Source: Mobula hypostoma
Taxonomy: Eukaryota
Length of the DNA stretch: 64,000 bases
Direction of reading: 5' to 3'
Assembly (NCBI RefSeq): GCF_963921235.1
Contig: NC_086097.1
Span: 128,156,001-128,220,000 of the forward strand
This document shows, piece after piece, positions 1 to 59,990 of the stretch. A program made the translations under genes and the position numbers. Position 1 is the stretch's first letter; each line of letters starts with the position of its first letter. Under the pieces are notes generated by a model, which saw nothing but the letters and a program-made list of their open reading frames with translations, made no database searches and was not told where the DNA came from.

Positions 1-379
1 CATTTCTGGCATCTCCAAGCCTGTATGCTTGAAACCGCAGGGAGCAAAACGATGCTGAATTGTCATACTGCTTTCTTCTCACCAACAATCAGTGACAAAA
101 GTCACTGCTTTTTGAACACAAACACATGCAACTGATGCTATTTAAAATCTGTTCACTTTAAGTACAGTATAGTGTCTGACAGCCACAGCAAGCGCTTGCG
201 ACGCATGCTATTGAGAAACTTTTTGGTAACGGTCGCCTGTCCGAATTAAGGGGAGTAGTGACCCAAGTAATTGAAGGGAATCCCAGGTAATTTTTTGATT
301 AATTTTGTTCTTTAAGAGTTGCCCTAATTAAAGGGTTGCCATGATTAACCGATGGCCCAATTGACCAGAGCCCACTGTA
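1..379. mobile_element. Terminal part of a TcMar/Tigger-like DNA transposon remnant
   Basis: Ends ...GGCCCAATTGACCAGAGCCCACTG-TA; reverse complement is TA-CAGTGG..., the typical Tigger terminus with TA target site. The other end is outside the window. Confidence 0.5.
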
Positions 380-2234: not shown

Positions 2235-2372
2235 GCAAACAATCTCCCACAGGATCCCAGCAGCTCGAGCAGCATCTGTGGTGGTTGAAGAAATTGTTAA
2301 TGTTTTGGGTTGAAACCCTGCAGCAGGACTCTATGTTATCTGTGGCCCCAGATTCCAGCATCTGCTGTCTCT
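2235..2372 (-). mobile_element. Old Penelope-like terminal-repeat remnant
   Basis: Similar to the family motif CAGCAGG..CAGCATCT...GAAACCCT..ATCAGGACT and to CCAGCATCTGC seen in better copies (23142, 59890). Confidence 0.5.
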
Positions 2373-2807: not shown

Positions 2808-3468
2808 AGGCAACTTTCTACAAATGTACAACGAAGAGCAGTCTAACTGGCTGCATCACTGTCTGCTATGGTGGGGGTGGGGGGGGGGAGTGGAGGGGTG
2901 GTGCTGCTGCAGAGGAGCACCACCCTCAGTGGTAAACCTAGTCAGCTCCGTCTTGAGCACTCACATCCGTAGTATCCAGGACATCTTCAAGGAGTGATGA
3001 CTCAAAAATCCGACACCCATCATTAAAGAGCCCCATCACCCTTTTCTCATTGCAACCATCAGGAAGGAGGTACAGAAGCTTGAAGGCACAACAAATTCAG
3101 CAGCAACACACATCAAAGTTGCTGGTGAACGCAGCAGGCCAGGCAGCATCTCTAGGAAGAGATACAGTTGATGTTTTCCTCGAGGAATCCGCAGAATTCC
3201 TCGTGAATACATTTTTAAATTCAGCAGCAGCTCCTTCCCCTCTGCCATCCAATTTCTGAATGGACATTGTACCCATGAACACTACCTCACTGCTTCTTTT
3301 ATTTTTATTTTTGCACTAATTACTTAATTTAACTATTTAATATATATAAGTACTTACTATGATTCACATTTTTTCCTCTGTTATGCATTGCATTTTGCTG
3401 CTGCCGCAAAGGCAACAAATTTCACGACATATGCTGGTGTAACTAAACCTAATTCTGATTCTGATTCT
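2808..3468 (+). mobile_element. Rex1/Babar LINE 3' fragment, interrupted by a Penelope-like insertion
   Basis: AACTTTCTACAAATGTACA..GAGCAGTCTAACTGGCTGCATCAC (NFY.C..ES.LTGCIT-like); tail CTGATTCTGATTCT. Confidence 0.65.
3106..3216 (-). mobile_element. Short Penelope-like terminal-repeat insertion with 13-bp TSD
   Basis: AAATTCAGCAGCA at 3093-3105 and 3217-3229; body matches 55963-56114. Confidence 0.75.
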
Positions 3469-4224
3469 AGCTATTCATGCAAATAAGGCAGCAACTAAAT
3501 TGGAGGAATGAAAAGGAGCAGAGGTACCTCAAAATTTGGCAGTGAGGAAATTATGGATGGGTATTTGAAAATATTAAAATTAAAATTGTTATTTACCTGA
3601 AAGCTTATACATAGAGAGAAAACATTGCACATGTTAAATGAAAGAAAGCTAATAATTTGGAGACTTCCCTCTCCTCCTACTACCAATGCACACACTCTCT
3701 GTGGCTCAAAGAGCAGTCATTTTCTTTAACTGATGCAAATGTCAAGCCTAATTAGTGACAAATTAAAGACTCCAGTGATTTTCCTGTCAGTTGATACAAG
3801 CCAGTGATTGGCAGGGCACCAACTCTCCTTGAGCTGTTTTACATTTATTTACTTTTATGGCACAGAAGAATCAAAGCCACGGTGTTTTTGTCTGCACAGA
3901 GAACAGCACAATGGATAGTGGCAGGGCCTTTGCATTTAGCACCTTGTTAGATTCACTGTTTTATATCAGAGGTTGTGCCCTAGTGTTCCATTGAATAGCC
4001 TCACTGGAAATTACACAGTTAACTCACAATTATAAATCTCCAACTAAAACACTCCACACCACCTCAAATCATCATTAAGTTTGCTTATTTACTTACATCA
4101 CAAACGGAAACCCAGTACCAGTACATTGACAGTCACAATAAGTATGTTCTTAGTTATGCTGTCTGTTATTGAAAATGGGAGAACATCACGTTTTTAGAAA
4201 TCATGTATTTTTTAGGCCATCCTG

Positions 4225-4390
4225 AGCTCTCTGTTGCAGACCATTTCAGCTTCCCTTCCCATTTCCACCCTAACCTGTTTGTCCTCAGATCTCTCCACTG
4301 CCAGAATGGAGGCCAACACAATCTCAAGGAACAGCACCTTATAGTCTGCATCCCAATAGCATGAATGCTGAATTTTCCAATTTCAGGCAA
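4225..4390 (+). mobile_element. Decayed Penelope-like GIY-YIG C-terminal remnant
   Basis: CCATTTCAGC..GAGGCCAACACAATCTCAAGGAACAGCACCTTATA..GCATGAATGCTGAATTTTCCAA parallels 22815-22925 and 54320-54480. Confidence 0.5.
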
Positions 4391-5604: not shown

Positions 5605-5646
<42 letters not shown>

Positions 5647-5935
5647 CTAGAGAAACTCAGCAGCTCAGTCAAGAATATAGCCAATGTTTTGGACCAAAAC
5701 CCTTCAGCAGGACTGCCTTTTTAAGGAAGCTTCTTCCCCTCTTTCATCCAATTTCCGAACAGTGCCTGAACTCATGAACATTACCTTGCTAGACCTCTTT
5801 TACGTGATTAACTTATTTATTTTTGTTGTAACATACCAATTATTTTTCTTTTTTATGTCTTGCACTGTGCAACTGCTACAAGACAACATATTTCACAACA
5901 TGTTGTTGGTAATAAACCAGATTCTGATTCTGAAC
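5385..5935 (+). mobile_element. Rex1/Babar LINE 3' fragment, interrupted at about 5565-5715
   Basis: TTCAAATTCCTGGGCTTCAATGTCTCAGAGGAACTATCATGG (FKFLG.N.SE.LSW); tail AATAAACCAGATTCTGATTCTGA. Confidence 0.6.
5565..5715 (-). mobile_element. Penelope-like terminal repeat with expanded (CA)n and degenerate hammerhead motif
   Basis: Reverse complement CAGTC CTGCTGA AGGGTTTTGGTCC AAAA CATT GGCT; (CA)n at about 5608-5641. Confidence 0.6.
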
Positions 5936-6071: not shown

Positions 6072-6203
6072 CCAGTCCTGAGGAAGGGTCTTGGCCCGAA
6101 GCATTTACTGTTCGTTTCCACAGATGCTGCCCGACATGCTGAGTTCCTCCAGCGTGTTGTGCGTGTTGCTTTGATCCCAGCATCTGCAGAGTATTTTGTG
6201 TTT
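6072..6203 (+). mobile_element. Penelope-like terminal repeat starting at the hammerhead motif
   Basis: CAGTC CTGAGGA AGGGTCTTGGCCC GAAG CATT TACTG, then GATGCTGCC..GCTGAGTTCCTCCAGC. Confidence 0.7.
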
Positions 6204-10393: not shown

Positions 10394-12129
10394 CTTGCTG
10401 AAAGTAGGGTGGTTGATGTCATTTAATGTGTCCGGAGCTTTAGTGGTCTTTGGATACTTCCACATTGCCTGTGTTCTGGGATACCCTTATAGGAGTTAGG
10501 ATGCTTCTCGTATATAAAGTGCTTCCTCTCATGTTGATTAGACACAGTTTATCCTTTCAAAATATTTAAACACATCTGTTATAAACCTTGTACATTTTTG
10601 ATTAAATGTATAGAAACAGTATGTAAACCATGACTATTTTTCTTTGTTGCTACAGCCTAGATACCGGGAACATTCAGGACTATACATTTATACTTAAAGA
10701 GGAAATGCAGTCAGTAATCAAAATATTTGAAATTTGCACACTGACAAATTTGCTAGACCCTGTCTCATGTAATCTGTGAACTGTATTGTTGGCATAAATG
10801 AATGAAAAGTTTGAATAATTGCTGTAAGGCTGCAGGAACATACTGACACTCTGGAGACCCACGTTGCTCTCCACAATCCCTACCCACTGCCCCATAATCT
10901 GTGGCAGGCCAGATGTTCGTGATGTAGCCTGACTTTGTACTGTCCAAACCAAGTGTTGGAAAGTGTTGAGGTTGGGAGAATGTGGGCTTGTTTGATATTC
11001 TGATGGCCATCTGTTCCACTTCAACATGGCCAGGTTCTCAAAATGATTCCGACAGTCTTACAGCAGGCCCATGTTTACAGAGTTCACCATCCTATCTATC
11101 CCAGAAATTATTAAATCAAAGACTCAAGTTGCAGGGAAAGTCTCCTCTTTTCTTTTTATTTAAAAAAAAAATCACTTAACCATAAATTGTGTGCTAAATC
11201 CATCCATATGCTTGAGTACACTAAAAGTAGAATCCCTGACACTATTTGAGGGCGGTGAGGGAGACAGTATTTAACCCCAAACGAAGTTTAATTAATTAGG
11301 CATTGTTCGCTGTATGTGGGACCATGAGCATGAAGTGTCTGTCAACTTGCTCTTCAAAGCTATAATCAAACAAGCTGTAAATCCCCAAAAGACTGATGAG
11401 AGTTACAAGCGCTTCTTATGAATGCATCACATGATTGGCTTCATCCCAGGATTCCTGTTTCCGGGGTATGTTTGATGGGATAACTGCTTTCACTTGTACT
11501 TGACCTACGTGGTCAGACTGGCTTGGGTGTAATATTTTTAATTTATTATGTTGACTGGCATGATTTGTTCACAGTGAGCATTTTTGGCGTATTAAGTGTA
11601 AAGCCAACTGTCATCCTTAGAAAACAGAATCAGGTTGGCTGGCTAAATCTGCTTTGTCCCATCGCAATATTAAATGCAATTCTTGCCATTCCTTAGTGCT
11701 GACAAATTAGGAAATTTTGTTTATTCTCTGACAGAATTTTGCTCCTTCATCATATAACCTGCATCTTATGTTTTCCATGGAAAAAAATACGGTGTAAGAT
11801 CTTCCACTCCCATTGTGAGTATCAGGAATGAACGAAGTAACAAGGAAATGCTTAACCAGTGCAATATAGGATTGCTATTTTCCATTATATTTACAATATT
11901 GCTTTCTTCAGAGCATGCTTCCTTTGGTTCAGTATTAGGCAATATAAATATTGGTAATAAGTTTCTGGAGGTTGCTGGCAGCTTCACGTGTCTGCATTCT
12001 GCAACCACCTGCAAGTTGTCGCTTAGTGCTGGAACTGACGCATGTATTGCAAAAGCAGAGTCTAAGCTGAGCAGGCTGACTGGGAGCCCAAGCTGCAAGT
12101 CTGCCATGCAGTATGTCCATAGTGCAAAG

Positions 12130-12460
12130 CACATCAGCACACACAGCAGAGCTGCTGTCTCACAGATCCAGCAACCCGGGTTCAATCCTGGCCTGTCTGT
12201 GTGGAGTTTGTATATTTGTCCGGTGGGTTTCCCCTCAGGGGCTCCAGTTTTCTTCCACAGCCTAAAGATACAGCTTGGTATATCAATGGGACACCATAAA
12301 ATTCCCCTAGTGTGTAGGTTATTGATAGAACCTGGAGATAATTGATGGGAATGTGTGAAACTATAATGGGATGAGTATAGGATCAGGATAACCATGGACA
12401 CTTCATGGTTAGCACAGTCTTGTTGGGCCAAAGGGCCTGTTTCTGAGCTGTACATCTCAA
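12130..12460 (+). mobile_element. tRNA-derived V-SINE with CR1-like tail
   Basis: GGGTTCAATCC, GTGTGGAGTTTG..GGGTTTCCC..GCTCCAGTTT..CCACAG, tail GGGCCAAAGGGCCTGTTTC. Confidence 0.7.
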
Positions 12461-12608
12461 TGGCTTTGTTGTTCACTTCTCTACAGTAGTGAGACCTGGT
12501 CAGGACCAATGTGTAAGCAGCCTTTGCTGCTTCATTCTCGGGATCTCCTGGCAGGTCGAGACCGCTATTTAAGTGATCGTGGACTATGCTAGTCTGTCAG
12601 CATACATT

Positions 12609-17860: not shown

Positions 17861-17877
17861 GTAAGTTAACACAGCAT

Positions 17878-20710
17878 TTAATGTGAGGAGTATCATGAAC
17901 AAAGCGGATGAGCTTAGAGCGTGGATCAGCACTTGGAGATATGATGTTGTGGCCATTATAAACACTTGGATGGTGCAGGGGCAGGAATGGCTACTTCAAG
18001 TGCCAGGCTTTAGATGTTTCAGAAAGGATAGGGAGGGATGCAAAAGAGGTGGGGGTGTGGCACTGTTGAATAGAGATAGTGTCACGGCTGCAGAACAGGA
18101 GGAAGAATTGGAGGGGTTGTCTACGGAGTCTCTGTGGGTGGAAGTTAGGAATAGGAAGGTGTCAATAGCTCTACTGGGTGTTTTTTATAGACCACCCAAT
18201 AATAGAGACATCGAGGAGCAGACAGGGAGACAAATTCTGGAAAGGAGTAATAATAACAGGGTTGTTGTGGTGGGAGATTTTAATTTCCCAAATATTGATT
18301 AGCATCTCCCTAGAGTGAGGGGTTTAGATGGGGTAGAGTTTGTTAGGTATGTTCAGGAAGGTTTCTTGACACAATATGCAGATAATTCTACAAGAACAGA
18401 GGCTGTACTTGATCTGGTATTGGGAAATGAACCTGGTCAGGTGTCAGGTCTCTCAGTGGGAGAGCATTTTGGAGACAGTGATCACAACTCTATCTCCTTT
18501 ACCATAGCATTGGAGAGGGATAGGAACAGACAAGTTGGGGAAACATTTAATTGGAGTAAGCGGAATGATGAGGCTATCAGGCAGGAACTTGGAAGCATAA
18601 ATTGGAAACAGGTGTTCTCAGGGAAACGTACCAAAGAAATGTGGCAAATATTCAGGGGGTATTTGTGTGGGGTTCTGAGTAGGTACATTGAGACATGGAA
18701 AGGATGGTAGGGTACAAGATCCATGGTGCACAAAGGCTGTTGTAAATCTAGTCAAGAAGAAAATAAGAGCTTACGAAAAGTTCAAAAAACTAGGTAATGA
18801 TAGGAATCTAGAAGATTATAAGGCTAGCAGGAAGGAGCTTAAGAATGAAATTAGGAGAGCCAGAAGGGGCCATGAGAAGGCCTTGGTGGACAGGATTAAG
18901 GAAAACTCCAAGGCATTCTACAAGTATGTGAAGAACAAGAGGATTAGACGTGAGAGAAGAGGACCAATCAAGTGTGTATGGAACTGGAAGAAATAGCAGA
19001 GGTACTTAATGAATAATTTGCTTCAGTATTCACTACCGAAATGGATCTTGGCGATGGTAGGGATGACTTGCAGTGGACTGAAAAGCTTGAGAATGTAGAT
19101 ATTAAGAAAGAGGATGTGTTGGAGCTTTCGAAAAGCATCAAGTTGGACAAGTCACTGGGACCGGAGGAGATGTACCCCAGGCTACTGTGGGAAGTGAGGG
19201 AGGAGATAGCTGAACCTCTGGCAATGATCTTTGCATCATCAATGAGGACAGGAGAGGTTCTGGAGAATTGCAGGATTGCGGATGTTGTTCCCATAGTCAA
19301 GAAAGGGAATAAGGATAGCCCAGGAAATTATAGGCCAGTGAGTCTTACTTCAGTGGTTGGTAAGTTGATGGAGAAGATCCTGAGAGGCAGGATTTATGAA
19401 CATTTGGAGAGGTATAATATGATTAGGAATAGTCAGCATGGCTTTGTCAAAGGCAGGTCGTGCCTTACAAGCCTGATTGAATTTTTTGAGGATGTGACTA
19501 AACACATTGATGAAGGTAGAGTTGTAGATGTAGTGTATATGGATTTTAGCAAGGCATTTGATAAGGTATCCTATGCAAGGTTTATTGAGAAAATAAGTAG
19601 GCATGGGATCCAAGGGGACATTGCTTTCTGGATCCAGAACTGGTTTGCCCACAAAAGGCAAAGGATGGTAGTAGACGGGTCATATTCTGCATGGAGGCCG
19701 GTGACCAGTGGTGTGCCTCAGGAATCTGTTCTGGGACCCCTACGCTTTATGATTTTTATAAATGACCTGGATGAGAAAGTGGAGGGATGGGTTAGTAAAT
19801 TTGCTGATAACACTAAGGTTGGGGGTGTTGTGGATAGTGTGGAGGGCTGTCAGAGGTTACAGCAGGACATTGATAGGATGCAAAACTGAGCTGAGAAGTG
19901 GCAGATAGAGTTCAACCCAGATAAGTGTGAGGTGGTTAATTTTGGTAGGTCAAATATGATGGTAGGCCAGAATATAGCATTAATGGTAAGACTCCTGGCA
20001 GTGAGGAGGATCAGAGGGATCTTGGGGTCTGAGTCCATAGGACACTCAAAGCTGCTACGCAGGTTGACTCTGTGGTTAGGAAAGCATACGGTGCATTGGC
20101 CTTCATCAATCGTGGGATTGAGTTTAATAGCCGAGAGGTAATGTTGCAGCTATATAGGAACCTGGTCAGACACCACTTGGAGTACTGTGCTCAGTTCTGG
20201 TCACCTCATTACAGGAAGGATATGGAAACCATAGAAAGGGTGCAGAGAAGATTTACAAGGATGTTTCCTGGATTGGGGAGCATGCCTTATGAGAATAGTT
20301 TGAGTGAACTCGGCCTTTTCTCCTTGGAGCGACGGAGGATGAGAGGTGACCTGATAGAGGTGCATAAGATAATGAGAGGCATTGATCGTGTGGATAGTCA
20401 CGGGCTTTCCCCAGAGATGAAATGGCTAGCATGAGAGGGCATAGTTTTAAGGTGCTCAGAAGTAGGTACAGAGGAGATGTCGGGGTAAGTTTTTTACACA
20501 GAGAGTGGTGAGTGCGTGGAATGGGTGCCAGTGGCTGTGGTGGAGGCGGAAACGATAGGGTATTTTACGAGACTCCTGGATGGCTACATGGAGCTTAGAA
20601 AAATAGAGGGCTATGGGTAAAACCTAGGTAGTTCTAAAGTAGGGACATGTTCGGCACAGCTTTGTGGGCCGAAAGGTCTGTATTGTGCTGCATATTTTCT
20701 ATGTTTTCTA
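17878..20710 (+). mobile_element. CR1 LINE, near-complete ORF2 (APE endonuclease + RT) broken by stops and frameshifts, plus 3' UTR
   Basis: [78 protein letters not shown]-type tail. Confidence 0.95.
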
Positions 20711-21329: not shown

Positions 21330-21815
21330 TCTCATGCTACATCCTCTCTCCAGCCCCCATTTCATCTGCAACCCCCATGTGATTTCACCTGTTTACCTCT
21401 TCCGTAACGGTTCCTATTATTACCTTCCTTACTGTTAGGCACTGTGTTCCCCCTCCCCTCCTTATCACCCTTATATTTGTAACCATCCTTCCCTCCCTCC
21501 ACTTGGCCTCATCTGCCTTTTTTTGTCTTTCTCCATCTGTTACCCATTCGCCTCAGTGTCCAACTCTCCCCGCCCCTATCTGAATCCATCTGCTCATCAT
21601 CCTTCACCCTCCTCCGTTCATCAAATACCTACTGATCTCTGTCTCACCACCTTATCTTCTCTCTTTGTACTGGCTATCCTCCCTCTACACTCAGTCCTGG
21701 TGAAGAGTTCCAACCAGAAAGGTGGACAATTCCTTTCTCCCCACAGGCGCTGCTCGACCGGCTGAGTCCCTCCAACAGATTGTTTATTACTCCAGATTCC
21801 AGCATCTGTCGTCTT
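21330..21815 (+). mobile_element. Old Penelope-like 3' region and terminal repeat
   Basis: CT-rich body followed by CAGTC CTGGTGA AGAG..GAAA and CCAGATTCCAGCATCTG. Confidence 0.5.
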
Positions 21816-22464: not shown

Positions 22465-23232
22465 TAACAAGAGATAATCCGCCAATGTGGGAAATCCAAG
22501 CACCACACACATGAAATGGTGGAGGAACTCAGCATGCCAGGCAGCATCTATGCAAAAGAAGTTGATTGGTGAAGAGATACAAGGCTGGAGAAGGGGGAGT
22601 GTGATAGGAGAGGACAAAAGACCATGGGAGATAGTAAGAAAAGGGGGAAGAGCACCAGAGGGAGGAGATGGGCATGTAAGGAGATAAGGTGAGAGAGGGA
22701 AATGGGAATGGGGAATGGGTTGCAGTTACTGAAAGTTCAAGAAATCAATGTTCATGCCATCAGATTGGAGGCTACCCAAGTGGAATATAAAGTGTGGCTC
22801 CTCCAACACCAATACTGTTACAATGAGGCCACATTCAGGTTGGAGGAACAACACCTTATATTCCATCTGTGTAGCCTCCAACTTCCACCTTAATGGCATG
22901 AACATCGATTTCTCAAGCTTCCAGTAATGCCCCCCACCTTCAGCATTACACATCCCATTTCCCTCTCTCACCTCATCTGCTTACCTGCCCATAACCTCCC
23001 TCTGCTACTCCTTCCCCTTTTCTTCCTTCCATGGCCTTCTGTCCTCTCCTTTGAGATTCCCTCTTCTCCAGCCCTGTACCTCTTTCACCTTTCAACTGCT
23101 CAGCTCTTTACTTCACTCCTCCCTCACACCCTTTTTCTCTCTAGTCCTGATGAAGGGTCTCGGCCCGAAATGCCAACTATTCTCTTTTCCATAGGTGCTG
23201 CCTGGCCTGCTGAGATCCTCCAGCATTTTGAG
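22465..23232. mobile_element. Penelope-like element pair in inverted (fold-back) orientation
   Basis: 22465-22808 is antisense and 22815-23232 is sense of the same GIY-YIG C-terminus (EATFRLEEQHLIFHL) plus terminal repeat. Confidence 0.8.
23142..23179 (+). ncRNA. Minimal type-I hammerhead ribozyme motif, decayed at stem III and the cleavage triplet
   Basis: TAGTC CTGATGA A GGG TCTCGG CCC GAAA TGCC AACTA: intact CUGAUGA and GAAA boxes, stem II GGG/CCC, stem I TAGT/ACTA. Confidence 0.6.
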
Positions 23233-23939
23233 TTACTGTTAGTAATAGTGATGATAGAACAAGCAGATTGTCACTAAACGTATACATTACTCTCTAATAT
23301 CCTTTGTCCTTCTCTGGGGTCTGCTGACTCCACAGCCACCAGTATAGCCTCTTCACTGCCTGCTGAGTTCATATGTTCTAATAACACTGAAAGAAGCATT
23401 CAGCCTATTAAGCACATACCAATTCCTAGAGCACTCCCATGGTTTGGGGCTAATTAGGGATAAATCTTAAATACCAATAATGTTACATACTATAAATGAA
23501 AAAGTAACACAAAAAATATGGGCACCAGAATCATTCACACCTGTTGTCCTTTGCCCTCTCCGGGCTGTGTAAATGCTTTGAAGCTTGTTCAAGATCGGTG
23601 GTCCAACATGTTTCCACCACAGCACAATTTTGCAAGGAGGTCTGAAATCCAACGAGGTTCGAGCCATCCAGTGTACCATTGGAAAGGATATGCCTCTCAG
23701 ATGAAGCTGTGCATGGTGCCCAGTTCGAGGCGCTGCTTGTAATTTGCCTTCCTGGCCTTTGTCAATCAGTGCGGCAGTTTACAGCTAAGGTCCATGTATT
23801 GCTAGCACGAAGTATTCTGAGAAACTACCCTTTCTTGAGGCTTTCATTCTACATGTTTGAGCTAGAGCTCAGATTATTTGGAGTGGTAGAGAGGATGATA
23901 GTGGGAAGGGAGAGGCATCTCTTTATCTATATTTCCTTA

Positions 23940-26125: not shown

Positions 26126-27149
26126 ACTATCTGCCCTGTAATGATACATTCTTCTACTGACCTGCTGAATGAGAAATTTGTCTAAATCCTTAGGCAACTT
26201 TCATCCCTGCTCTGAGAATCCCAGTCTCCCAGGCAGCCCCCAGCATGTATCCCACTCCTCTGTGTCACCCCTCCTCCTTCAGTTGACATCACACGTACCA
26301 ATCTACATGCCAATCTTTGTGATCTGTGTCAGTCTCCCCAAATCTCCACTACCCCAGCCTGCACCCCTATCCCACACATTGATCGTGCACGTGGCTGGTT
26401 ATTGACCCTGACCTCAGGAGAGGAGGGCTGGTTGATGTATTACTAAACATGAAAATAAGTAACTTGATCACTCCAGACAAAGAGACTGAACGTGCTGAGA
26501 TCTGGAACAACAAAAAAGCTGCAGGAGAAACTCAGTAGACTGGGCAGTATTGGTGGGGAGAGGAAGGAATCATCAGTACTCCTGGTGCAGGATTTTAACC
26601 CAAAACGTGAACAATTCATCTCCTCGCCAGACAAACTGCAATCGCACTACATTCATGAAGCTTTAGACTGCAGAAAGCAGAGGTTTTAAGCAATTTCCTA
26701 AAAGAAATTTGGTCAGCTGCATCTCAGCCATGACAACTTGCACCCACAGAAATGAGTAAAGTAGAAAATTTGGACTTCTCATCCACCAACAGCACCCACA
26801 CACTTGTTATTGCCAAGATTCACATGATAGTGTTCAGGAAAGTGAGCCAACAGCCACTGTATCCCAGCCTTACCAGAGGAACCCACTGTGCAGTGGCCAG
26901 GCTGTTGGCAGACAGTACAGATCAGTGGGCGATTCTGACACCCTCCTGAAACCTGACCACATGACGTACTTCCCCATCCAAATGAATTCTCAGCAGAATC
27001 CTCCAAGTTGGTGTATGATGATATGAGGAAAAATGTTTTCACATTACACTTCCTGTTGCCTCATGAAATAAGTCAACATAATTATGGACCTCCTCCCATC
27101 CTGCTCATTCTCCCTCCTCCCCTTTCAGACTGCATCACCTCATCACCAT

Positions 27150-38100: not shown

Positions 38101-41100
38101 TTATGCTACTGTCTCCTTTACCACTGCCATGATGTGCGTTTGCAATATTGGAACCAAGTGTAGAGGAAAGACAGACTCTTGATGTAGATATAGTAACAAG
38201 GGTTTATTCATAATAATTCCAAAAGAATATTGATGGCTTGACATAGTGACACTGTGAAAAGTAACATTCTCAAAATTAGGACCCTGTGATTAGTGCTAAT
38301 TGAGCATCCATTTAACCATATAACAATTACAGTACGGAAAGAGGCCATCTCAGCCCTTCTAGTCCATGTCTGTGTTACTTATATTAAATAATATGAGTAA
38401 CACAGAATCCCTGAGCCTATCAAAATAAATTCAACAAGCTTAAGCAGAAAGCGCCAGGAGACCATGTTACAAAAAGCGAGCCGCTTGAGAAAAACACAAG
38501 GAGATCTAAGTAATTAAGACGGTTATTGAACAACAATTAACCAATTCAGGTGCTCTAAAAACCTCGGAGCCCAAAGTTCTCTGGCATCCCGCACAGGTCC
38601 AAAGAACTCATTACAACCACAAATAATGAAATGAGAGATTCCATATACTTCAGAATAACCTATTCAACCACACACATTCAAGGGTTTGCTTTCATAAAAG
38701 ACCAAGGACTCACTTTTATTTTATCTGTTAGCAAAATATATCACTTTAAAGTTCACCTGCCAAATTTTGTCCACTTCAGCAACACATGTACTCCTGTTGT
38801 GTACTCCCATCTATTTCAATCCTCAGGATAACTCCATGTTCTGTGACTAACCATTGCTGACACACAATTCTTTCTCATTAAACCATGAGGTACTGAGACA
38901 GTGAAGCAAAACAAGCTGGAAGCATCACATCAGACAGGACCACTGGAGGGAGAAACAGTGTCTTAGCTCACTGAACTATCAACAGAACGGCTCAGCCATA
39001 GACCAAGAACAAAATGATTTTGATTCATATTTACAATCCTGCATTCTAATTATACCAAGCAGATTAGTATGCGCACACGAAACCTTTGTTAATAATTCTG
39101 GATATAATACAAGCATCCACAACTTAAACATTGTAAGTAATGTTTAAGTTGCCAGAGAGAAGGGGACACTCTTTATGGTCCCTGACTGCTCTTTGGCTCC
39201 ATAAGTCATGCCATCAACCACAAACTGCTCACAGGCCACTTGGGGCTGAGCTCTTTTTCTCCTGTCCTTTCAGTTCACTCAACAACTGTGGAGATATTCT
39301 CTCTGACTGATCAGAAGTGAATTAGCAGAAGCCAGAACATGGCTCCTCAGCCTTGACTGGTCATGCCATGGACAGAAGTGCCTGCTTGGACTTTCTACTC
39401 TCCATCCAGGCATTCCATTCTACTGATGTTGGTGCAACAGTACTTTCGAAACAGAGTTCAAAACATTGTCAATAGAGCAGATTTGTATTCAATGCAAACC
39501 ATCATTTTTTTTCTACTGCAAGGTAGTCAATTTTTTATTTTCAAAAATTAAAAAAAAGGCCTCAAGTAATCTCCAACTGGCAAACTTGGTAATATTCGTG
39601 GAAAGAATTGAAATTGGCAATCCTGTTAAATAACTGAGGAATTAAGTATCCCAAAAGCTTGGAAGTCGTGCTGTTATATTTTAAAAGATAACGTCAAAAC
39701 AGGTTTCTTCTCTCAAATTGAGGTTTAGTTTAGACTGCAGTTGGTGTGAATGTGAATGCACCTTAGTTGTGATTATTTTTGTGGAAATCTGCAGGCTTTA
39801 GCTGCTACTAAGAAGTAATGAATGACCCTCAGAGATCTTGTGAGAGGGGAGGTGACTGTAGCTTTGTAGGGGAAAAAGACCACGCTGAATTAATATTCAG
39901 CCCTGACCTACACGTCACCCACATTTTATTGAATGGGTGACTAGGATTTGAAAACAGGGACTGTTACCAAATACTGCTTCAGTGGAGGACTGGAAATATA
40001 ATGGTACAGTTAAACTGAAATTGGAGAAGAGGGGAATAAAGAATTGATGTAATCAAACACGCTGTTGTTCCCAGAACTTCGACGAAGTTTCTAAATGAAG
40101 GTTTATGACTTGCTCATTTATTAGTTGAATGGTCTTGCTTCTTTGCTGCCATGTGTTGCAGTTGTTGACTAATTTTCCTGGCCAGATGCCCAAAAGAAAA
40201 TTAAAACACTGCTATCTACTAGCATTGTATTGTGTCCTTCTTGGCCCAAATAGTAGCAATGGTTGCACCTTAGAAAGACTAGTCTGCTAGTGAATGTGTC
40301 GGTGCCAACATTGGAACTTGCTTATTTGTTCTTTATCAGGGCTTGGATTATTATGGAACTGTGGGGACTCAGTATGTTTTCTTGGTATTCCTTCCCAATC
40401 ACTTGGTAACTGTCTGTGGGGCTGGAATGCTGGAATGCAGCAGGTGAGAAGGCATTTGTGGAAAGGGAAAGTTTTCAGGCCCAGGACCCTTCAACAAAAA
40501 TTTTAGGTGACTAGGTGAGAGAAAAATATGACAATAGGGTGAGACCAGGTAACTTAATGTGGCTGTTAGGCAGTTGAAATCTGTTTTGACTTTCTTTTAC
40601 CCTGTTTAGATATGAATCAGGTTTCAGAATCAGATTTATTATTACTGACATCTGGTGTGATATCTTGCAGCAGTGCTTGTTTAGGTATTCACTGTAGACT
40701 AGTCCCTGAAAGAAGAAAATTGTGGGTTTAAGCTACCTTCCCAAACATGCAGCTGATCTAAAAGCAACATCTGAGAGCTGTGGCGCAGTGATCCTGCAAA
40801 TTTATAGTTTAACCTGCTACTCGGGAAAATGTAAAGCACATAGTTGGTATTTGGAGCGAGATGCTTCATTACATTGGCTATATGATAATGAAATGGGCCA
40901 TTTGGCCCAGCCTCTCTATGCTGCTCTTTATGCTCAACTCAAGAAAATTCTTAAATCTCTCTCATACTAACCTATCATTGCAAATTTCTATTCGTTCTCC
41001 CTCAAATACTTGTCCAAGCTCCCCTTCAGAATGTCTAAACTATCCATGTGATATTCATTTCATATTTTCCGCAGGCTCTGGATAAAGAAATGTCTTCTTG

Positions 41101-51267: not shown

Positions 51268-51419
51268 AAAACAAGGTACAGTAATCCTGGGTAAATTATG
51301 GGCACTCTTTGTTATCCTATGGTCATAAACAAACAAAATAGCCACGTCTATAACATTGACAGAATTCAGATCTCCTCCTACACAATATTTTTTACTCATT
51401 GAGATACCTCTGGCCATTT

Positions 51420-52072
51420 ATCTGGGCTGGATCTGGGGTTGAGGGGGTAAACAGCTTTAAGTTCCTCAGCATCCACATCACCGAGGACCTCATGTGGTCT
51501 GTACACAACAGCTGTGTGGTGAAAAAGACACAACAGCACGTCTTTCACCTCAGACGGTTGAGGAACTTTGGTATGGGCCCCCAAATCCTAAAAACTTTCT
51601 ACAGGGGGACAATTGAGAGCATCCTGACTGGCTGCATCACTGCCTGGTATGGGAACTGTACCTTCCTTAATCGCAAGACTCTGCAGGTAGTGTGGACAGC
51701 CTAGCATACTGTATCTGTAGTTGTGAACTTCTCATGATTCAGGATATTTACAAAGACAAGTTTGAGAATGGAGCTCAAAGGATCATTGGGGACCCAAGTC
51801 ACCCCAACCACAGTCTATTCCAGCTTCTACCATCCGGGAAATGGTACGACAGCATAAAAGCCAGGACCAATTGGCTCTGGGGCAGCTTCTTCCACCAGGC
51901 AATCAGACTAATTAACTCTGAATGTATTTCTATGTTACATTGACTGTTCTATTTATTATAAATTATTATGAATTACTATGATTGCACATTGCATGTATGG
52001 AAGGAGACATAATGTAAAGATTTTTACTCTTCATGTATGTGAAGGACATAAGAAATAAAGTCAATTCAATTC
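51420..52072 (+). mobile_element. Rex1/Babar LINE 3' fragment
   Basis: VEGVNSFKFLSIHITEDLMW..LRRLRNFGM..FYRGTIESILTGCITAWYGNC; DPSHPNHSLFQLLPSGK; AATAAAG-(TCAAT)n tail. Confidence 0.88.
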
Positions 52073-54037: not shown

Positions 54038-55160
54038 AAAAAGATGAGGAGTAGTTTTTAAAGGTGGGGGGAGGGGAGAGAGAAACACAGGTGATAGGTG
54101 AGACCAGGAAGGGGAGAGAAGAAGTAAAGAGCTGGGAAGTTGATTAGTGAAAGTGATACAGGGCTTGAGAAGGGGGAGTCAGCTAGGAGAGGACAGAAGG
54201 CCATGGAAGAAAGAAAAGAGGGGCGGGGAAGAACACCAGAGGGAGGCGATGGGCAGGCAAGGAGATAAGGTGAGAGAGGGAAAAGGGGATGGGGAATGGT
54301 GAAAGCAGGGGGCATTACCAGAAGTTGGAGAAATCAATGTTCATGCCATCAGGTTGGAGGTACCTAGATGGAGTATAAGGTGCTATTCCTCTATCCTGAG
54401 TGCGGCTTCACTGCAGCAGTAGAGGAGACCATGGACTGACATATCAGAACAGGAATGGGAAGCAGAATTAAAATGGGTGGCCACTGGGAGATTCCTCTTC
54501 TTCTGGCAGACAGAGCATAGGTGCTCGGTGAAGGAGTCTCCCAATCTACATCGGGACTCAGCAATATACAGGAGGCCACATCAGGAGCTCCAGATACAGT
54601 AGATGATCCCGACAGGCTCACAGGTGAAATGTCGCCTCACCTAGAAGGACTTTTTGGATCTCTGAATGGTAGTGAGGGAGGAGATGTTGGGGCAGGTGCA
54701 GCATTTGTTCTGCTTGCAAGGATAAGTGCCAGGAGGGAGATCAGTGGGAAAGGGTGAGTGGATAAGGGAGTCGTGTGGAGAACCATCCCTGCGGAAAGCA
54801 GAAAGTAGGAAGGAGGGAAAGATGTGCTTGGTAGTGGGATCCCATTGGAGATGGCTGAGGTTGCAGAGAATTAGGTGCTGGTGGGATGGTAGGTAAGGAC
54901 AAGAGGAACCTTATCCTTGGTAGGATGGTGGGAGAATGGGGTAAGAGCAGAATTGTGTGAAATGGAAGTGATACAATTGAGGCCACCATTGATGGAGGAA
55001 AGGAAGCCCTTTTCTTTGAAAAAGGAGGACACCTCTTTCATTCTGGAATGAAAAGCCTCATCCTGAGAGCAGATGCAGCAGAGACTGAGGATTTGAGAGA
55101 AGGGGATGGTGTTTTTACAAGTAACAGAGTGAGACGAGGTGTTGTCCAGGTAGCTGTGAG
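54038..55160 (-). mobile_element. Penelope-like retroelement fragment (RT C-terminus, Cys-rich linker, GIY-YIG endonuclease, 3' region), pseudogenised
   Basis: Minus translation GTYPCKQNKCCTCP..F*VRRHFTCEPVGIIYCIWSS*CGLLYIAESRCRLGDSFTEHL..PVATHFN; possible TSD core TCCCATGTA at 54025-54033 and 55163-55171. Confidence 0.9.
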
Positions 55161-55329
55161 TATCCCATGTAGCTATCTCTTATAATAGCTCCCTGCTGGT
55201 CAGACACCGCCTTAATACTAATGTTACTCAATAATAAATCTTTGCCTTAACTTCAAATCAGTCATAAGTCTGATCTATCATTAAGAGGGGGCAGGATGGA
55301 GGGGAGGATCAATGTCTGATTTATGGAGT

Positions 55330-55962: not shown

Positions 55963-56114
55963 ACACACATAAAAGTTGCTGTGTTCACCAGCAACTTCTA
56001 TGTGTGTTGCTTGACTGTACCTCTTCCTAGAGATGCTGCCTGGCCTGCTGCATTCACCAGCAACTTTTATGTGTGTTGCTTGAAATTCTAGCATCTGCAG
56101 ATTTCCTTATGTTT
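55963..56114 (+). mobile_element. Short Penelope-like terminal-repeat insertion with inverted and tandem pieces, 14-bp TSD
   Basis: GCAATATTCCAGCT at 55949-55962 and 56115-56128. Confidence 0.8.
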
Positions 56115-56501
56115 GCAATATTCCAGCTTACTTAGGTCTCGTGCCTTGCAAAATATAATCAGAGTTTCTTGCGCTTCTTTTTTATGGTATTTTAATTCTA
56201 ATAAAAATTCCCTATTCTGGAAAGAACTGTTGGTACCATTATGACACAGGGCTCAGATAGAGCCAGGATTGTCTATTCAAAGTTCAAAATTCAATGTTCA
56301 AAGTTCAAAGTAAAATTCTTGCCAATGTACATATATGTCCATATACTATTTTGAGATTCATTTTCTTGCACTCACAGTGGAATAAACAAATAAAGTGTTT
56401 ATTTTTGTGCACATAAACAAAGACTGACAACTAACCAATGTGCAAAAGAAAACACACTTCTCAAATACAATAATAATAATAATAATAAGAAGAAGAAGAA
56501 G

Positions 56502-59889: not shown

Positions 59890-59990
59890 AAGTCCTGATG
59901 AAGGGTCTTGGCAAGAAACATTGACTGTTTACTCTTTTCCATAGATGCTGCCTGACCTGCTGAATTCCTCCAGCATTTTGTGTGTTTTGT
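59890..59990 (+). mobile_element. Penelope-like terminal repeat starting at the hammerhead motif, about 14-bp TSD
   Basis: AGAATTGTAGAAAT (59876-59889) / AGAATTGT-GAAAT (59991-60003). Confidence 0.75.
59891..59927 (+). ncRNA. Minimal type-I hammerhead ribozyme motif (CpG-decayed)
   Basis: AGTC CTGATGA AGGGTCTTGGCAA GAAA CATT GACT: core boxes intact, stem I AGTC/GACT perfect, stems II and III damaged. Confidence 0.55.

Follow-up and report, generated by a model that had tools for sequence, protein, structure and literature searches.

A probable minimal hammerhead in the end repeats of an abundant Penelope-like retrotransposon of Mobula hypostoma, with decayed copies in a 64-kb window

Introduction

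Minimal type-I hammerheads of Penelope-like elements (PLEs) were described by Cervera and De la Pena (2014; PMC4209133), with the core CUGANGA, one extra base, a stem II that starts with G, GAAA-C-GU-C without loop 3 and a short stem I. They lie in both flanking repeats and occur mostly as solitary truncated copies, with nearby pairs on opposite strands, and the ray motif described here shares all of these features. That work reports that metazoan minimal hammerheads cleave poorly even as dimers and that the Schistosoma motif gave no cleavage as a monomer and low cleavage as dimers; its Table S1 and Fig. S3 include no cartilaginous fish. The dimer and circle model of PLE hammerheads is reviewed in PMC6765202, further context is given in PMC6155905, and their role was called unclear by Craig et al. 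(2021; 10.1101/2021.04.23.441226).

For the Poseidon element of Anolis, PAc (Frangieh et al. 2024; PMC11167929), the ribozyme was reported to cleave only with its protein, and cleavage was dispensable for insertion in vitro. Two internal starts of reverse transcription downstream of the PAc hammerhead define a tail of 30–40 bp, with no sign of cut RNA as the main template; the ray element appears to agree in these points. In Drosophila virilis, an intron ends at helix I (PMC4209133; PMC2377424), and the Drosophila start site lies inside the pseudo-LTR (PMC2377424). Neptune/Nematis-type EN+ PLEs (Craig et al. 2021) combine a reverse transcriptase (RT) with a C-terminal GIY-YIG domain, a DKG motif and a CX2-5CxxC linker, and form partial tandems with an inverted 5'-truncated partner and a tail on one end, an organization shared by the ray element. 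Non-LTR retrozymes (10.64898/2026.07.22.740005) also carry PLE-derived type-I hammerheads in vertebrates, with one chondrichthyan genome reported; they are tandem non-coding repeats, whereas the ray copies are dispersed ends of a coding element. In the mostly open-access literature covered, we found no description of a PLE hammerhead from a shark or ray, and the chondrichthyan retrozyme family of this 2026 preprint could overlap with the present one.

Results

Decayed motif copies in the window

We analyzed a 64-kb stretch of the ray genome (the window), in which a first-pass annotation had placed seven copies and one half copy of a single hammerhead-like motif. All were confirmed at their positions and read as described, and its remark that no copy is intact holds, as 7/7 copies are damaged in the core, the NUH triplet or stem III. 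The idea of one shared motif stood only in part: a tail of ~60 nt is common to the copies, whereas they belong to at least two lineages with no single consensus. A profile built from natural copies gave 13 family matches in the window, 8 of them across the core, and 0 in the reversed-sequence control. The features are the following.

2237..2331, − strand: subfamily B copy, C at core position 9; A6>C, G12>A, G16.2>A
3093..3178, − strand: half copy, GAAA through tail
5636..5715, − strand: short copy from stem I; A6>C, G12>A, G16.2>A
6073..6190, + strand: short copy from stem I with long tail; A15.1>G, G16.2>A
21679..21785, + strand: subfamily B copy including upstream UTR; position 9 is A; A6>G, C15.2>G, H17>G
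22466..22807, − strand: inverted partner arm of the same insertion as 22813..23233; frame end, UTR and tail, without motif
22813..23233, + strand: PLE 3' remnant; GIY-YIG frame end (22813-22922), pyrimidine-rich 3' UTR, motif and tail
23142..23179, + strand: decayed minimal hammerhead motif; CUGAUGA and GAAA kept; C15.2>U, U16.1>C, G1.1>A
26516-26563, − strand: weak inverted tail arm of the 26578 copy
26578-26631, + strand: subfamily B copy, C at position 9, within feature 26516..26631
40431..40496, − strand: weak relic across the core (nhmmer, E 5e-4)
54040..55164, − strand: longer PLE 3' remnant (tblastn); RT thumb, linker, GIY-YIG and UTR
56011..56116, + strand: tail-only copy, start within ~2 nt of the predicted cut site; absent from the first-pass list
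59890..59990, + strand: short copy from stem I, core kept; G16.2>A, stem II base broken

The motif at 23142..23179 has C3 at 23147 and a predicted cut between 23174 and 23175, and 18/22 pairs of the dimer fold are possible in it. Its surrounding remnant shows 84% DNA identity to the full-length locus L042 over 110 nt, and the frame end upstream is identical to the 290-aa frame of locus L001 at 15/21 aa. The longer remnant at 54040..55164 (78% DNA identity to L042 over 882 nt) had no detectable motif. The short copy at 59890..59990 has a likely 8-nt target duplication, and a duplicated tail piece (55977-56014) lies directly ahead of the tail-only copy at 56011..56116. Five of the seven motif copies appear to start at stem I, a proportion to be read in light of their having been picked for a whole motif. 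Judged by their sequence, the window copies are decayed 3' ends of a Penelope-like element, and the 38-base motif matches the small hammerhead type already known from PLEs.

The strict pattern CTGATGA...GAAA is weak in the window (6 matches compared with 1.54 expected, 2/6 being family members), so the case rests on the shared tail and the genome-wide counts. A descriptor of the intact motif gave 0 matches in the window versus 7 in 400 kb of random DNA of the same genome.

Several other features were seen in the window. A (CA)17 microsatellite (5608-5641) lies inside the tail of the copy at 5678, and since element sequence continues beyond it, the TG repeat of the tail is its likely source. 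A divergent PLE endonuclease end at 4224-4390 (+ strand, 40% to L042) had no motif detected behind it. The broken LINE at 17865-20434 (+ strand), which we take to be CR1-like, carries endonuclease (PF03372) and RT (PF00078, E 1.6e-22) frames, and related fragments occur across the window. A repeat-derived frame at 51360-51704 (+ strand; PF09004, ALKBH8_N, E 1.2e-10), with relatives at ~2812 and 62319, is likely a retroelement fragment. The 276-codon stop-free stretch at 11766-12596 (− strand) had no Pfam match.

The carrier element

The L001 frame protein was compared with the 3.48-Gb genome, giving 234,233 first-look candidates, of which 135 were scored. A 1,043-aa open frame was found at 5/135 scored loci (L041-L045), and these five were examined together with five shorter loci. 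The results bore out the Penelope origin proposed earlier: the motif lies ~300 nt past the stop of an RT and GIY-YIG frame (306 nt after the 290-aa frame at L001, where it is intact) and in both flanking repeats. Intact motifs sit on both sides of the frame in L042, L043 and L045 (3/5 full-length loci); L041 has G8>A in its 5' motif copy, and L044 is truncated at the 5' side. By the motif-to-motif spacing in L042, the element unit is 3,513 nt with a single RT and GIY-YIG frame. Direct repeats (pseudo-LTRs) of 663-1172 nt occur in 4/5 full-length loci, and many inverted pairs were present among the young copies examined.

Against Pfam, the element protein gave two matches that fall short of the curated cut-off, RVT_1 (E 6e-5) and GIY-YIG (E 0.002), and the L042 translation contains a DKG motif and a C-x4-C-x2-C linker. 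It has 947 protein homologues. Homologues show RT and GIY-YIG domains too, the top matches have RT domains, and the best named match is a bamboo shark protein (71%), which places the host among the cartilaginous fishes. The long frame opens ~57 nt past the cut site and the element ends are GU-rich, whereas in PAc the frame starts inside stem II and the ends are AC-rich (PMC11167929); the ray element is further marked by its linker. On these features, the carrier is an EN+ Penelope-like element with a single RT-GIY-YIG frame, partial-tandem pseudo-LTRs and an inverted truncated partner. It carries the linker mark of the Neptune/Nematis type, a likeness that does not tell Neptune and Nematis apart.

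Hammerhead anatomy and predicted cleavage

The anatomy of a minimal type-I hammerhead with a palindromic ACGU stem III, as first proposed, is present in the sequence, and intact copies could form 22/22 pairs of the dimer fold. In the youngest intact form, stem I is UAGUC/GACUG and the core is CUGACGA, with one extra A; stem II has 4 bp and a G.U pair at its base, and GAAA-C-GU-C lacks loop 3. The proposed stem I CAGUC/GACUG fits the inferred 34-nt form, which has 1,021 exact genome copies (control 0), and not this youngest form. The core CUGANGA, GAAA, U16.1 and H17 are kept in the 65,699 genomic copies that fit the structure-compatible descriptor, and in none of the seven window copies once stem III is counted in. 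Compared with the hammerheads of PMC4209133, stem II of the ray motif is short (4 bp).

With 22/22 pairs possible, the dimer folds of L042 and L001 were predicted at -12.9 and -18.1 kcal/mol. The best predicted dimer reached -31.9 kcal/mol, so the active dimer is not the lowest-energy fold in this model, which ignores core contacts. Stem pairing across 19 chosen, mostly decayed copies was possible in 78.5% of cells versus 78.1% in shuffled controls, with slid partners at ≤40%. The stem changes in these copies were one-sided (G-C to G.U, U.G to U-A), and covariation was not above shuffles. The Rfam check suggested in the first-pass annotation gave no hammerhead family match in the window (E ≤ 5) or in an intact copy (E ≤ 10). 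Self-cleavage of the intact motif is what we infer from this anatomy.

Abundance and CpG decay

The structure-compatible descriptor (core, stems, NUH) matched 65,699 genome copies, one per 53 kb (control 0). This is several times the published counts for the frog Xenopus (~9,000) and the coelacanth (~4,000; PMC4209133), a rough comparison because the descriptors differ. Forty 10-kb stretches at round coordinates on large contigs, taken as a random sample, contained 47 core-spanning copies, one per 8.5 kb, 7 of them intact. Genome-wide extrapolation gives ~408,000 relics (Poisson range 300,000-543,000, wider with clustering). The earlier figure of about one motif per 8 kb is therefore right as a number and is not special to the window. 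Its density is ordinary for this genome, and the copies in it happen to be old ones only.

CpG decay accounts for most lesions, as had been suggested. Among 49 copies compared with a natural intact copy, 103/343 cells differed in CpG columns and 129/1,321 in other columns (30% versus 10% changed), and 90/103 of the CpG-column changes were C>T or G>A. Column by column, the CpG-rich letters of the motif are still the most frequent, although CpG o/e in the window is 0.25. In the youngest subfamily, whose motif has four mutable CpG sites, no core letter is lost and both the NUH triplet and the palindrome are preserved.

We also inspected by eye the first 100 listed descriptor matches (G000:C1:1-4,061,516). 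Diverging opposite-strand pairs within 1 kb numbered 7, and 5 pairs on one strand were found within 5 kb; for most intact motifs there was no same-strand partner nearby. At L153 (G000:C1:130191810-130192643), two motifs form a direct tandem with a few bases between them, and the upstream motif is decayed. Retrozyme-type tandem non-coding arrays with an intact hammerhead per unit were not found in the window, and a 39-nt array elsewhere in the genome has broken units. This array (L255:1093-1729; G000:C2, ~122,689,600-122,690,240, − strand) comprises 16.4 copies of a 39-nt unit from a decayed motif. Position 9 is C in many of the units and stem I is intact in none, and the array can be described as a minisatellite born from a hammerhead.

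Subfamily B and core position 9

Three window copies (2295, 21692 and 26578) belong to subfamily B, which has a differing stem II variant and tail. When position 9 was left open, its genome matches (n = 53) had C in 45, T in 4, A in 2 and G in 2. The A expected at this position in the consensus CUGANGAH of PMC4209133 is thus not what subfamily B has, its CUGAUG-C-A lying off that consensus. We found no description of position-9 hammerhead variants in the mostly open-access literature covered. Two subfamily B copies free of decay lie at G000:C55:63995602 and G000:C64:49448103. Among 30 fetched subfamily B loci, one (L280) has a PLE frame remnant directly upstream, with 35% identity to L042, which suggests that subfamily B is likely an older, separate PLE lineage. 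Position 9 matters for hammerhead catalysis, as A9 pairs with G12 in the core.

Ends of the insertions

A 45-nt stretch of the tail had 8,305 exact genome matches, and the ends were analyzed in 99 distinct copies from the first 100 matches listed, all within the first 43 Mb of contig C1. The 3' ends fell at two sites relative to the cut site, with 52/99 at +55..72, 46/99 at +95..112 and one at +632; the two sites lie ~66 and ~102 nt past the cut site, ~36 nt apart, in line with the optional 30–40 bp tail of EN+ PLEs. The motif was intact in 71 of the 82 young copies that span it.

The 5' ends were mostly truncated and favoured the first bases of stem I. Three rows with unanchored alignments (L096, L116, L123) were dropped, leaving n = 96, and 17/96 ends lay at -30..-33, the first bases of stem I, compared with 2.2 expected (P = 3e-10; 2e-8 over 60 windows). 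At the predicted cut site there was 1/96 compared with 2.8 expected, a count of low power that excludes only a strong peak. Among stand-alone copies with target duplications, 7/17 start at -31..-33, and the duplications are 12-15 nt in 15/17. A second sample took 80 of the 1,021 older-form copies and dropped L188 (another subfamily's UTR); here 10/79 start at -31/-32 (P = 2e-7, the background being 18 ends over 33 nt as counted by hand). A smaller cluster of seven copies at -53..-56 was not significant after correction. None of the five full-length copies (0/5) starts at stem I, and 4/5 extend at least 600 nt upstream; this counts against a simple start-site model, which predicts some such starts. 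Separately, L095 (minus strand, ~2841 oriented) and the window copy at 55977-56116 start within 2 nt of the predicted cut, each after a duplicated tail piece.

Splicing as the cause of the stem I hotspot was not supported: a pyrimidine tract and AG lie just ahead of stem I, as at the Drosophila virilis intron end, but same-strand element sequence was found upstream in 0/23 copies ending at -29..-36. Masking of the core by the upstream tract, as a folding switch, looked strong in L042 and was seen in 3/5 copies only, and shuffled upstream sequence matched it in 8, 29, 86, 92 and 53 of 100 trials for the five copies, so it was rejected as a selected feature.

Discussion

The motif is most probably the end-repeat hammerhead of an abundant Penelope-like retrotransposon, whose window copies would be inert and whose intact copies would cut after GUC only when paired and helped by protein. 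The element protein may initiate reverse transcription internally, at a point of the RNA shortly past the motif, and internal initiation is favoured by the two groups of 3' ends, which resemble the two reverse transcription starts of the anole element. With such a start, even the shortest insertions would copy the motif, which would explain its high number. Most templates would be uncut or re-ligated RNA, and many may begin at stem I, either as a transcription start or as a processed end. In source elements, two motifs could pair through the palindrome ACGU, each core cutting the GUC/GAC of the other, and this mutual cutting would release or circularize unit-length RNA. Source elements would keep a dimer-dependent, probably protein-assisted ribozyme, and after insertion CpG decay destroys the motif.

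The position of the 5' ends bears on two other readings, both of which we consider rather doubtful. The motif could descend from a hammerhead and act in this lineage chiefly as a signal, structural or protein-binding, where the template RNA begins, with cleavage rare or dispensable. The 5' ends mark stem I and not the cut site, 4/5 full-length copies extend well beyond the 5' motif, and subfamily B spread with C at position 9, with a PLE frame remnant ahead of one of its copies. In the anole element, mutation of the core leaves insertion in vitro normal (PMC11167929). Such a signal accords poorly with a youngest subfamily that retains the core letters, NUH triplet and palindrome despite four mutable CpG sites. 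Circular templates made by cleavage and ligation would likewise leave no ends at the cut site, and L095 and the window copy at 56011 do start there. Alternatively, the stem I hotspot could be a by-product of insertion chemistry, through GTC microhomology during inversion or through a hairpin that causes a pause or nick, and would then be silent on where the RNA starts. GTC recurs on the opposite strand, inversion junctions were flagged in 8/23 copies ending at -29..-36, with several others that looked inverted by eye, and the seven copies at -53..-56 form a second, smaller cluster. This is countered by the 7/17 stand-alone insertions with target duplications that start at -31..-33 without inversion, and by loose contig ends at the same two bases in three other organisms, one base being confounded by subfamily differences.

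That the likeness to a hammerhead arose by chance in the terminal sequence of a repeat is very improbable. It would account for the lack of an Rfam hammerhead match and of compensatory covariation above shuffles in the 19 mostly decayed copies, yet the core letters, the extra base after A9, G10.1, the palindromic stem III and the position in the pLTR all fit the consensus of PMC4209133. The end-repeat hammerhead of a PLE thus remains the reading we prefer.

The kind of element is already published and the window copies are relics; the value of the present case lies in scale and testability. The map of insertion ends and the C9 subfamily bear directly on whether cleavage belongs to the transposition cycle. 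We put forward, tentatively and with some reserve, that the hammerhead marks the template start more than it cuts, and that a subfamily which spread with CUGAUG-C-A would have either a core variant, with the extra base before A9 and not after it, or a life cycle in which catalysis is dispensable. If this is true, the ray genome, with tens of thousands of intact copies, would be a ready test bed for the function of PLE hammerheads.
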